64,000 nucleotides of DNA, from the NCBI GenBank assembly GCA_037442745.1, contig JBBIPP010000006.1:734-64733 (forward strand). The letters are read 5' to 3'. The first letter of the stretch is position 1, and each line of letters opens with the position of its first letter. The position numbers and the translations under genes were made by a program. Source of the DNA: an archaeon. Lineage in GTDB: Archaea; SpSt-1190; DYHY01. The notes below the pieces were generated by a model. The model did no database searches, had not been told where the DNA came from, and saw only the letters and a list, made by a program, of their open reading frames with translations. Of this stretch, positions 19,407 to 22,543 are shown piece after piece.

Positions 19407-20438
19407 TCAGCAGTCGCCAATCGCAAGATTGAGCTTGGAATATATTTCAGTGCCTTTAGGGACAGTTGCTTTCAGGTGATAGCAGAGGTCGCAAACATTG
19501 CTGAAAAAGGGAACTGGAAACCCGGCAATATTCAGTATCTGGGCTGTTCGCGCAAGTCCTTCCTTTGCAAGACAGTATGACACTGCGTCGGAGGAGAATG
19601 CGTCAAGAACCTGCTCAGGAGAAGGATATTGTCCGCTCCGAACATCAAGAGCGCGGTTTTCGGGAAAATCCCCTCCGAAAGAACAGCAAGGGTACACGTG
19701 CGCAAGTCCGGGTTCCGACTTGTCCGGCGAGAAGGTCGGGTTGCGATGGCAGTTCCTCGCTGAAGCTGGATAGAGTCCCTTATTTCCTTTTCCCCTTCCG
19801 AATTGTCCGGCCGGCGAGACTGAGACTCTGTATACGCCCTCTTTGCCGGAAGGGCTTTTTACAAAAAGCGAGGCGTCTCTGTATGAAATTGAATATTCTT
19901 CGGGAGCGGATGCGCATATTTCCGAGAGAACCTTTTCGGCGGAAATCCTCTTCGTATAGAGGGCAGTAAGGGTTGCATCGGGAACGCCTGCGTCCGTTGA
20001 TGCGGAGAAAAAGTTGGCAACATTCCTTGCAGGGATTTTGTGCATATGGCCTTCTCCTGTTGAAACGTTCCAGGATGGGAGGCCGACCTCCTGCGAGAAT
20101 TGCGCAAGCATTTTTCCTGCGGATTCGAGGGTTCCTGCGAACCAGGCGTTGGAATTTATTGTTGGAAGAATCCCCCTTCCAAAAAGTTCGGAAACAGCGG
20201 TTTTCAGTGCAGGAAGGTTTTTTGGAAGAGTTACTTCACCTCCGGACAAGATATTGTTGTCGGAAAAACCGAGTTTGCGCCCTTCCGGAGTTTTCCTGAG
20301 GACATCTGAAACTTCAACCCACCAGGAAACGTCTTCAGGGAAAAGACGGGCGCTCCTGTTGTTTTCGCTACCAGATTCGTTCCCGCAGTAAAAGCAGTCG
20401 GCAACGCAATCATAGCTAATGACTGTTATTGAAGTCAT
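19407..20438 (-). CDS. Radical SAM protein
   Basis: N-terminal CxxxCxxC (CVADCFYC), SGGE motif, C-terminal VYPCC and CDLC. Confidence 0.75.
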   Translation of the reverse strand: MTSITVISYDCVADCFYCGNESGSENNRSARLFPEDVSWWVEVSDVLRKTPEGRKLGFSDNNILSGGEVTLPKNLPALKTAVSELFGRGILPTINSNAWFAGTLESAGKMLAQFSQEVGLPSWNVSTGEGHMHKIPARNVANFFSASTDAGVPDATLTALYTKRISAEKVLSEICASAPEEYSISYRDASLFVKSPSGKEGVYRVSVSPAGQFGRGKGNKGLYPASARNCHRNPTFSPDKSEPGLAHVYPCCSFGGDFPENRALDVRSGQYPSPEQVLDAFSSDAVSYCLAKEGLARTAQILNIAGFPVPFFSNVCDLCYHLKATVPKGTEIYSKLNLAIGDC

Positions 20439-20486: not shown

Positions 20487-20729
20487 TTAAATATTGTCAG
20501 TGAAAACCATTCTTGGCTTGCCAGACAAGAGCCTCTTTTCCAAGGAATCTTTCTCTGAAAACGGGTCTTCCGGAAGGGCAATTCTCTCAGATAATCCGCT
20601 ATTCCCGCTTTGTTTGAATGTCCGTTCCTTCAATTCAATTGACGCAAGAAGAGAGTCTTCATCGAAATCAATCGGGTCTTTTGAAAGCCTATATTTCCTT
20701 CCGGTCGCAATATAGACGGTTTCAGGCAT
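20487..20729 (-). CDS. Hypothetical protein (80 aa)
   Basis: ATG ORF filling the gap between co-oriented TBP and radical SAM genes. Confidence 0.55.
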   Translation of the reverse strand: MPETVYIATGRKYRLSKDPIDFDEDSLLASIELKERTFKQSGNSGLSERIALPEDPFSEKDSLEKRLLSGKPRMVFTDNI

Positions 20730-20754: not shown

Positions 20755-21696
20755 TTATCTCTTCCCGAACAGCTTGCCGAAAAGGCCTCTGGAGGATTTT
20801 TTCTGGGGTTTGGCTTGCTTTGGCTTGGCTTTTGCCTTGGGCTTGGAGCGAGGTCCGGACTTTGAGCCAGCTCTTTCGGGCTCGCCCTTGGGCTCGCCCT
20901 TGGGCTTGCCCTTTGGCTTGCCCTTGGGCTTGCCCTTGGGCTTGCCCTTGGGCTTGCCCTTTGGCTTTTTCCCTTTCCGTTTGGGCTCGGAATCGTCTGA
21001 ATCATCTACTTTTCCGGCAATTGGCCTATATTCCATTGAAGCTGGGATTGGCTGGTCGAGCTTGATTTCCTGCCTCCCTTCGTTCGCTCCTGATGCCTGG
21101 GCAGCTGCGGCTGACTCTGCCTCCCTTTTGAGGGTTTCCTCGTCTTTTTCCCTCGCAGCCCCGCTCCGGTTGACTGTTGTAACGAGCTTTTCAATTGCTT
21201 TCCTCAAGTCTCGGATATCTTTCAATCCGGCCAGGACGCACTTTCCGCTCGAAAATATCAGAAAAGTAACGTTCGGATCGTGTATTTTGTAGGTGAGCCC
21301 CGGGAAAAGTTCTGGCGAATAATATGCGTCAAGGACTTTTCTAACGAATTTCTCAAGGTCAACGTCAACCCCCATCTCAAGGGAGAAGACCATGTTCTGG
21401 ACCTCAATGTTATACTCCTTAATTGTCGCTCCGATCTTCTTCAGGTCCTTCCTCAGGTCGTGGGCGGCCCGTTCCAGCTGCTCGACGGACCTGCATCCGG
21501 CAAGAACAGCTTTGCCGTTCTTGAAGAGGAGGAAAGTGTGCCCTTGTTGCATATGGTAAATTGCTCCCGGGAACTTCTCCGGAGTGAATTCCGCGCCAAG
21601 GACCTTTGAAATCTTCTCAAGCGGGAACTCGACATGGAATTTGCATGACGCGACAATGTTCTGAGGGGTAATCTTTACGTCTTCTGGGGTTAACAT
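20755..21696 (-). CDS. tbp: TATA-box binding protein, divergent, with ~130-aa C-terminal extension
   Basis: Two TBP repeats: QNIVAS...PEKFPG...LLFKNGK and QNMVFS...PELFPGL...LIFSSGK. Confidence 0.88.
   Translation of the reverse strand: MLTPEDVKITPQNIVASCKFHVEFPLEKISKVLGAEFTPEKFPGAIYHMQQGHTFLLFKNGKAVLAGCRSVEQLERAAHDLRKDLKKIGATIKEYNIEVQNMVFSLEMGVDVDLEKFVRKVLDAYYSPELFPGLTYKIHDPNVTFLIFSSGKCVLAGLKDIRDLRKAIEKLVTTVNRSGAAREKDEETLKREAESAAAAQASGANEGRQEIKLDQPIPASMEYRPIAGKVDDSDDSEPKRKGKKPKGKPKGKPKGKPKGKPKGKPKGEPKGEPERAGSKSGPRSKPKAKAKPKQAKPQKKSSRGLFGKLFGKR
20881..20964. repeat. Seven tandem 12-bp units (CTTGCCCTTGGG-like) encoding the KPKG/EPKG tract of TBP
   Basis: Read directly; units differ by at most 1 nt from CTTGCCCTTGGG. 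Confidence 0.92.
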
Positions 21697-21751
21697 TGGA
21701 GCTTAAAAAGGATGGAAGGTATTTAAATATAGTATATAAATAGGCCTTTTT

Positions 21752-22543
21752 ATGGGAACAAAAGTGAAAAAGCCTGCGCCTATGCGGGGAAAGACCCCGA
21801 AAAAGAGCAACGCGCCAATTGAAATGCTCAAAAAGACTGTGGGGAACTCCGATGTTGTCCTCTTGACTGTTGACTCCCGGTTTCCAACGCCAAGCGTTTT
21901 TGTCGGAAAGCTCTGCAGGGAGGCAAAAGTCCCTCTCTTGGTTGTCCTGACAAAAGACGACCTTGTCGAAAGCCCGCGGGCTGTCGGTTTCCCTAGCGTT
22001 CCTTTCTCAGCCAAGTATCCGGGCAGGTACAAGAAAATGATTCTCAGGGCAATCTATGCCGCTGCGAGGAAGGGGAAGGATTCCTTGGTCAGGGTCTCGG
22101 TTGTCGGCTATCCGAACACCGGAAAATCGAGCCTAATAAACTCAATTTCCCACAGAAAATCTCTTTCAGTCTCGCCAATTGCGGGCCACACAAGAGCGGT
22201 GCAATGGATACGGTTCGGGCGCATTCTCCTCTCTGACACCCCGGGAGTAATCCCGGAGAATGTCGGAAAGGACAAACTCGTAATGATGGGGAGCCTGAAC
22301 ATTGATAAGGAGAAAGATCCTGTCGCAATCTGTGAAAAGGTCATTGGGGAGATTTTCTCTACAGATATCGGAAGGAAAAAATTCTTCCTCCATTTCGACA
22401 TACCTCCCTGCCAAAAGGAAGAGGTAATTGAAGCGGTCGCAAGAAGGCGGGGCAGGCTGATGAAAGGGGGTGAGCCGAACATTGAGGAGACTGCGAAGAT
22501 AATTGTAAGGGATTTCCAGAGAGGAAAAATACGCCTTGGCTAG
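21752..22543 (+). CDS. Circularly permuted GTPase, YlqF/RbgA family
   Basis: DSR, TKDDL (G4) before GYPNTGKSSLIN (G1), DTPG (G3). Confidence 0.9.
   Translation: MGTKVKKPAPMRGKTPKKSNAPIEMLKKTVGNSDVVLLTVDSRFPTPSVFVGKLCREAKVPLLVVLTKDDLVESPRAVGFPSVPFSAKYPGRYKKMILRAIYAAARKGKDSLVRVSVVGYPNTGKSSLINSISHRKSLSVSPIAGHTRAVQWIRFGRILLSDTPGVIPENVGKDKLVMMGSLNIDKEKDPVAICEKVIGEIFSTDIGRKKFFLHFDIPPCQKEEVIEAVARRRGRLMKGGEPNIEETAKIIVRDFQRGKIRLG

Follow-up and report, generated by a model that had tools for sequence, protein, structure and literature searches.

A TATA-binding protein with a constrained linker, a repeat-encoded polycationic tract and a candidate lipid-binding end in a small-genome archaeon

In a 64,000-nt stretch of DNA from an uncultivated archaeon (positions 734 to 64,733 of contig JBBIPP010000006.1, assembly GCA_037442745.1; hereafter the window), a minus-strand gene (20755..21696, identified from the list of open reading frames (ORFs), the sequence and Pfam) encodes a TATA-binding protein (TBP) of 313 amino acids, whose core is followed by 133 further residues forming four modules: a linker, an acidic patch, a basic tract and a short basic-hydrophobic end. 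The gene, its core and modules, the selection on them, the repeat turnover, the distribution and a match of the end motif inside the genome are observed. We read the protein as a working TBP whose tail binds DNA electrostatically and also anchors it peripherally to the membrane, a reading that we put at somewhat short of an even chance; we infer that the core binds TATA, the tract DNA and the end lipid. All coordinates are those of the window unless a contig is named; G000 denotes the organism’s own genome, and labels in G, L and P denote relatives’ genomes, loci or assemblies, and database proteins, respectively.

The gene runs from an ATG start to a TAA stop at 20755-20757 (minus strand), and its first 180 codons (21157..21696, minus strand) form the TBP core, as defined by Pfam, a structural match, the AlphaFold2 model and the ratio of non-synonymous to synonymous change (dN/dS). 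The complete two-repeat core that had been reported in a first-pass annotation, made from the letters alone, was recovered by Pfam PF00352 (TBP) in two stretches (E 4.9e-44, 148.5 bits, cut-off 22.9), the two repeats scoring 87.1 and 67.2 bits in the genome-level search, and no family other than TBP matched the 313-aa protein at E <= 1. Matches at E <= 1e-10 were found to 35 distinct PDB sequences, the best being the TBP of Pyrococcus woesei (1pcz, E 7.7e-34, residues 5-187 aligned). As in archaeal TBP of known structure (1pcz/1ais), the two-repeat saddle keeps the QN motifs and the four phenylalanines of the FPG/LxF motifs: F42, F58, F131, F148, N13 and N101 occur without exception in the 21 aligned sequences of the same TBP type (type A, one of two in this genome, see below) and are the same residues in 1pcz, at positions which we take to be those that kink DNA (the Phe pairs) and contact its minor groove (the Asn) in TBP-TATA crystal structures. 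The AlphaFold2 model, built on a 21-row alignment, has a mean predicted local distance difference test score (pLDDT) of 78, with core blocks mostly at 92-95 in a repeated strand/helix pattern.

The extension departs from the Pyrococcus protein, whose tail is short and acidic. It opens with the conserved linker (residues 181-229; 21010..21156, minus strand), delimited by conservation, selection and pLDDT, in which an Ala/Glu helix is followed by GRQEIKLDQPIPASMEYRPIAGK. Residues 181-230 are modelled at pLDDT 76-91 and contain a helix (186-202) and a short strand (226-229), and the linker may pack on the core; a complex prediction of core (1-182) against linker (183-243) scored 0.14 and 0.09, relative to a mark of 0.32, and speaks neither for nor against docking. 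The acidic patch VDDSDDSEP (residues 230-238; 20983..21009, minus strand; net charge -5) was defined by composition and has D/E/S-rich equivalents in relatives. It is followed by the basic Lys/Pro/Gly tract (residues 239-302; 20791..20982, minus strand), in which 25 Lys, 12 Pro and 10 Gly among 64 residues give a net charge of +25 and which is predicted to be disordered, residues 244-313 all having pLDDT below 50. Within the tract lies a 12-bp tandem array (20878..20967, minus strand) that encodes six KPKG, one EPKG and part of EPER. The protein closes with RGLFGKLFGKR (residues 303-313; 20758..20790, minus strand), marked out by the motif scan and by conservation as a candidate lipid-binding amphipathic helix. 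The tail elements listed in the first-pass annotation (Ala/Glu linker, acidic patch, KPKG x6 plus EPKG, and the terminus read as KKSSRGLFGKLFGKR) are thus all present in the ORF, and its 12-bp DNA units correspond to an array that Tandem Repeats Finder reports at a period of 12 bp and 7.5 copies (94% matches, score 152).

A tail of this kind could be an artefact, in which a missed stop, a frameshift or a mis-assembled repeat joins a normal TBP to downstream non-coding DNA, and the same annotation had named such an error, or absence of the tail in relatives, as what would overturn its view. The assembly itself is 1.14 Mb in 20 contigs and an estimated 94.5% complete, and its closest named public relatives carry the labels “archaeon”, “Candidatus Micrarchaeum sp.” and “Candidatus Altiarchaeota”. 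In three other, independent assemblies the same architecture was found, with orthologues that stay open through Lys-rich tracts of their own over 321 (L027, protein P0001), 343 (L025, which is P0002 and also G001) and 286 codons (L026, also G003); a fourth orthologue with a Lys-rich tail is P0003 (276 aa), and the start MLTPEDVKITPQNIVAS is common to the orthologues. Logan contigs from two runs of one study, which may be the source sample, reproduce both flanks with 0 differences and break inside the array (20932-20944), so that no contig of either run spans all 90 bp; the number of 12-bp units therefore rests on the assembly and is not independently confirmed, and another 12-bp array of the same assembly contains a 100-N scaffold gap. 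The frame is preserved at any whole number of units, since each is 12 bp long. Together with the purifying selection on linker and end described next, these observations leave the artefact nearly excluded, and comparison of the coding sequences supports a tail that is translated and under purifying selection.

Selection was estimated from Nei-Gojobori counts between G000 and L027, which agree at 91.7% of nucleotides within the first 700 nt and are 98% identical as proteins. The core (residues 1-180) holds 39 synonymous and 3 non-synonymous differences (dN/dS 0.017) and the linker, here taken as residues 181-246, holds 19 and 1 (dN/dS 0.010), so that by these counts the constraint on the linker equals that on the TBP fold. 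For the last 16 codons the figures are 6.5 and 3.5 (dN/dS 0.087), and despite the silent changes L027 keeps the end as GGLLGKLFGKR. Between linker and end the two proteins cannot be aligned. The homologous arrays differ in every orthologue: 14.7 decayed copies in L027 (also readable as 36-bp units), 7.3 in L026 and 4 + 2.2 in L025, relative to 7.5 in G000. Judged from these copies, the array expands, contracts and decays rapidly between lineages, and the earlier suggestion that tail length is tunable by the repeats agrees with a length that changes through turnover of one homologous array in four orthologues.

Such turnover invites a neutral account, in which the tail past the linker is largely low complexity made by slippage on a free TBP end and the terminal motif arose by chance. 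The variation in copy number and decay speaks for it, as do the tails of close relatives, which range from a few residues to ~160, and the presence of 12-bp coding repeats in the A domain of FtsY and in a protein on contig C15 of the same genome. What slippage does not account for is a frame kept open over 286-343 codons in four lineages, a composition that remains Lys-rich rather than drifting, the excess of synonymous over non-synonymous change in the terminal 16 codons, and an end that matches the start of an FtsY helix at seven of eight positions. Although it agrees with the turnover, we regard neutral slippage as improbable.

The extension is narrowly distributed. Among 40 relatives’ genomes, only two gave a match past query residue 207, namely G001 (to residue 294) and G003 (to residue 295). 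Database proteins of type A (n = 36, 51-98% identity) include five longer than 250 aa (P0001, P0002, P0003, P0005 and P0007), the other 31 being 191-222 aa long, most of them with a short basic end (KDKPKDKPKGK, for example). In P0005 and P0007 the tail is long, of Lys/Ala/Thr/Pro type, and lacks the conserved linker, which is confined to G000, P0001, P0002, P0003 and L026, and a hydrophobic end is found in just three of these linker-bearing proteins: GLFGKLFGKR in G000, GLLGKLFGKR in P0001 and GGFLSWLRGPKSTK in P0002/G001. A search with the tail only (residues 183-313) returned five proteins at E <= 0.01, of which P0001 and P0002 were the only TBP orthologues; it did not return P0003, despite the shared linker, and found the linker in no other protein family. 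The remaining three (P0047, P0048 and P0198; E 1.7e-4 to 4.2e-3) were weak and were taken as low-complexity matches, and an ESM Atlas look-up with the same residues gave no usable match. The first-pass annotation had proposed looking for the tail and its terminal helix in relatives: linker and Lys-rich tail do recur, but the hydrophobic end is missing from the sister genus and from the other long-tailed relatives.

Beyond type A, the other sampled TBPs end 0-5 residues past the domain, some of them with acidic residues. One canonical TBP of another lineage (P0054, 244 aa) carries a Lys/Ala C-terminal tail, and the single TBP of a 1.2-Mb genome (215 aa; G037:C1:461851-462474, L064) a Lys/Pro tail, both without a hydrophobic end. 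Other unusual TBP architectures, among the best 150 of 4292 matches of a broad TBP protein search, were a 702-aa protein of four TBP-like repeats with a long C-terminal region (P0158), a 354-aa TBP with an extra C-terminal domain (P0100) and a 317-aa TBP with an insert of ~150 residues between its repeats (P0085). A genome-wide habit of Lys-rich tails was considered and set aside, as only three ORFs of at least 120 aa in the own genome have at least 14 K/R (at least 10 K) in their last 40 residues.

The resemblance of the end to membrane-targeting helices rests on the organism’s own proteins. When 5458 all-frame ORFs of at least 60 aa (744,113 residues) were scanned with the strict pattern [LF][LF]G[KR][LFI]FG, it occurred twice genome-wide, at the C-terminus of the TBP and as GGFFGKLFGGLKKATEKV on contig C11. 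SRP54-type N and GTPase domains without an accompanying M domain identify the C11 protein as FtsY; its motif, GGFFGKLFGGLKK, lies at the A/N junction immediately before the SRP54_N domain, matches the TBP end at seven of eight positions and is conserved in G001 and G003. According to PMC5533587, the A/N junction of Escherichia coli FtsY corresponds to alphaN1, an amphiphilic lipid-binding helix, and an archaeal study on FtsY N-terminal helices and membrane association exists as well (10.1101/2022.04.13.488184). The 18 nt that code for the motif in the TBP gene are identical to those of the FtsY gene at 17 positions; we make no claim of a DNA-level duplication from FtsY, given that L027 encodes the same peptide with different codons. 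The FtsY gene itself (C11:44765-46749) encodes a long acidic A domain with a 12-bp coding array, (GEP[LF])n, and holds the 100-N gap (C11:45642-45741) within it; FtsY A domains are 200-400 residues long in G001 and G003 and short in G002, G004 and G010.

A comparable peptide, KPKGKLLFGIFGKKR, directly follows the ATPase domain (Pfam CbiA/ParA) of a 349-aa MinD/ParA-type protein (C4:62303-63352, plus strand), and this is the point at which its G004 and G010 orthologues terminate, with an amphipathic peptide as their C-terminus. Past the motif, the own protein continues into an 85-residue tail with a Trp/Phe end (GWWFWFFGRKK), and family-level orthologues also have extra tails. The TBP, FtsY and MinD-like motifs are similar in interfacial hydrophobicity, the best 8-mers reaching -2.36, -2.93 and -2.68 kcal/mol, respectively, on the Wimley-White scale; the end of P0002/G001, a relative in the same genus, is a different basic-hydrophobic peptide, GGFLSWLRG, with an energy of -3.14. 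An equally hydrophobic C-terminal window is found in 11% of 792 ORFs of at least 200 aa, and three of the 792 also have at least four K/R and no D/E. On a helical wheel of RGLFGKLFGKR, L, F, L and F fall inside a 140-degree arc, a hydrophobic face flanked by basic residues.

Like FtsY alphaN1 and the end of MinD, the TBP end is short, combines basic with hydrophobic residues and places the latter at i, i+1, i+4 and i+5, and like the MinD membrane-targeting sequence it stands at the extreme C-terminus. It differs from both in being placed on a general transcription factor behind a disordered spacer of 120 residues and in having no predicted helix, and its spacing is off by one residue from that of the own MinD-like motif. 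The description of the end as MinD-like in the first-pass annotation therefore holds as far as its resemblance to both the FtsY and the MinD-like motifs goes, but the hydrophobic spacing fits FtsY better than MinD. A reading of the C-terminus as a PCNA-binding PIP-box was rejected on the sequence, which lacks both the correctly spaced Gln and the aromatic pair of that motif. A third, loose motif hit on contig C8 was dismissed, since the Cys/Arg-rich ORF that contains it is probably a spurious frame.

Several observations weigh against the combination of working TBP, DNA-binding tail and membrane anchor. For the core, all 10 NCBIfam TBP models (PRK00394 set) match but none reaches its curated cut-off (best 144.1 bits vs 278). 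The stirrup motifs read AEFTPEKFPG in the first repeat and AYYSPELFPG in the second, where YSPE replaces YEPE, and in the GK motifs (GKAVLAG and GKCVLAG) Ala66 and Ala156 face the Thr and Ser of 1pcz in GKxVx[TS]G, leaving the hydroxyl in neither repeat; A66 is invariant across the A-type clade, and position 156 is Ala or Val. These are the core deviations flagged in the first-pass annotation, and they are real, although the “YEPE” and “Thr” consensus against which they were set is looser than implied, since 1pcz itself reads YNPE in the first repeat and Ser in the second. With Ala at both hydroxyl positions and sub-cut-off NCBIfam scores, normal TATA recognition is not assured, and the YSPE of the second stirrup may alter contacts to the central base pairs as well as the interface with TFB. 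No RNA run was found that contains the TBP stretch.

For the end, the hydrophobic moment of 0.52 is ordinary: 17% of 1191 ORF C-termini score at least as high, as do 22% of 10,000 shuffles of the same 15 residues, so that the helical-wheel check proposed earlier bears out the one-sided L/F arc but not an exceptional amphipathicity. Three of the 11 residues of the motif are Gly, and AlphaFold2 predicts no helix at 303-313 (pLDDT ~40); lipid-induced helices are often missed by solution models. The selection estimate for the end covers only 16 codons of one sequence pair, and the motif is confined to one genus. Plain runs of K/R close P0003 and G003/L026, of the sister genus, as well as P0005 and P0007 with their long tails; a hydrophobic end is unnecessary for the function of extended tails in general. 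The basic tails of P0054 and G037, which also lack such an end, make the tract explicable without a membrane role.

This last group of observations leads to a different account, in which the tail acts on nucleic acid or chromatin only: the tract would raise non-specific affinity for DNA or RNA or cluster TBP on the nucleoid, with the end off the membrane. We regard it as the main rival, somewhat less likely than the membrane reading. The basic tails that lack a hydrophobic end, on P0003, L026, P0005, P0007, P0054 and G037, speak for it, the ordinary amphipathicity and missing helix of the end are consistent with it, and the high constraint on the linker, together with its pLDDT of 76-91, hints at a structured contact. 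The Leu/Phe end could then contact TFB, RNA polymerase or a further TBP molecule, or fold onto the core. What this account leaves aside is that the sole other genomic site of the strict motif is the FtsY junction helix, whose E. coli counterpart binds lipid, and that the same kind of peptide sits at the membrane-targeting position of the MinD-like protein.

The tailed protein is one of two TBPs in the genome. The second (type B; contig C11, L003:1405-2052, plus strand; 215 aa) has an N-terminal extension of ~30 residues and GKAILPG in its second repeat, and is conserved across small-genome families of the class. In a maximum-likelihood tree of 41 TBP cores, which omits the B-like matches of G014 and of G002, the latter partial and lying at a contig end, types A (12 rows) and B (13 rows) are each monophyletic (100/99) and appear as sisters (92/94), the latter provisionally given a long-branch warning, with stem lengths of 1.58 and 2.11, respectively; larger-genome relatives of the same class (G006 and G008) have TBPs of the usual kind only. 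The sister pair fits, again provisionally, a duplication in the ancestor of this lineage group. The tailed gene was thus rightly called a TBP paralogue in the first-pass annotation, which had proposed a search for a second, canonical TBP: the second one exists but is more divergent, not canonical (Pfam score 116 bits vs 148.5, longer stem). It follows that, of the two, the tailed protein has diverged less and is not obviously the “alternative” initiation factor suggested earlier. The genome further encodes one TFB, three histone-fold proteins, none with a Lys-rich tail, and one Alba.

Around the TBP gene, a 55-bp A+T-rich intergenic region with TATA-like runs (21697..21751; read from the sequence) separates it from a divergent gene for a 263-aa MMR_HSR1-type GTPase (21752-22543, plus strand), a pairing that is kept in G001, G003, G002 and L027. 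On the other side, an 80-aa ORF without a Pfam match (20487-20729, minus strand) starts 25 nt past the TBP stop and is conserved no further than the genus (identity 81% in L027 and 54% in G001, where the match overlaps the 3′ end of the longer TBP), followed by a Cys-rich ORF of 343 aa (19407-20438, minus strand; 90% identical in L027) with a weak radical-SAM match (E 0.001) below cut-off. Coding repeats of 12 bp are recurrent in the genome: on contig C15, a 382-aa Lys/Glu-rich protein (C15:9100-10248, plus strand) contains a repeat of this kind, (AEGQ)n, and an overlapping frame of that repeat reads KPKGKPKGKPKG in a probably spurious ORF of 95 aa.

Returning to the reading of the protein as a TBP with a DNA-binding tail and membrane anchor, we propose that the core acts as a TATA-binding protein, type A of the two, and that the A-type gene gained its four-module extension in one genus-level lineage. 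The linker is probably a lineage-specific contact or regulatory segment. The Lys/Pro/Gly tract would form a non-specific electrostatic clamp on DNA, comparable to the tail of histone H1, with the head groups of anionic lipids as possible further ligands. The end would fold on the membrane surface as a lipid-induced amphipathic helix and so keep part of the TBP, free or in complex with promoters, at the cytoplasmic membrane. Carried further, TBP bound at promoters throughout the chromosome would be a peripheral membrane protein that, through its flexible, DNA-coating Lys/Pro spacer and an FtsY-type lipid-binding helix, fastens the nucleoid to the cytoplasmic membrane in a very small archaeal cell, which we consider rather unlikely as a specific role; if true, start sites would be coupled to the membrane, aiding co-transcriptional insertion of membrane proteins or chromosome positioning in a lineage with no known analogues of Noc or RocS. 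In an equally doubtful variant the membrane stores inactive TBP. The slippage-prone array would determine how far the tether reaches.

Each part of this arrangement has counterparts elsewhere. Noc (PMC4331003) and RocS (PMC13042908) are reported to be DNA-binding proteins with a lipid-binding amphipathic helix, and the lysine-cluster tail of TubY (PMC7762940) is reported to bind DNA non-specifically and to form an amphipathic helix on lipids. The likeness lies in a sequence-specific DNA-binding domain joined to a terminal amphipathic helix, here a candidate one. It is a resemblance in architecture alone, with no homology (Pfam finds only TBP at E <= 1), and the three are bacterial ParB-like, HTH or MerR-like proteins of division or segregation, none of them archaeal and none a basal transcription factor. 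The tract calls to mind other tails. Lys/Pro/Ala-rich DNA-binding tails are known from the C-terminal domain of histone H1 and from bacterial proteins of the HupB and AlgP type, which are likewise disordered, repeat-encoded, Lys-rich and strongly positive; the present tract differs in its KPKG unit and in its fusion to TBP, in a genome whose own histones lack such tails. Eukaryotic TBP has an N-terminal polyglutamine repeat region, which is also length-variable, slippage-prone low complexity on a conserved TBP core, but at the opposite terminus, of other composition and without a membrane motif.

Archaeal TBPs are regarded as compact proteins of ~180 residues with a short acidic tail at most, and regulation is usually assigned to TFB, TFE or gene-specific factors. 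In the full-text literature, subscription journals not being covered, neither a basic repeat tail nor a membrane-targeting end was found described for any TBP; the one paper found that mentions both Altiarchaeota and TATA-binding protein records only that TBP is conserved in DPANN genomes (PMC8407392). What is unusual here is a TBP that combines a strongly selected linker, a fast-evolving polycationic tract and an end motif that recurs in membrane-binding proteins of the same organism. Should the end bind lipid, the protein would be the first basal transcription factor found in the searched literature to be anchored directly at a membrane, and would parallel, on the archaeal side, the bacterial proteins Noc, RocS and TubY that bridge DNA and membrane. 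Independently of any membrane role, the recurrent basic TBP tails of several small-genome archaea, and the divergent A/B TBP pair served by a single TFB, bear on how the TBP-DNA complex is stabilised in reduced genomes.

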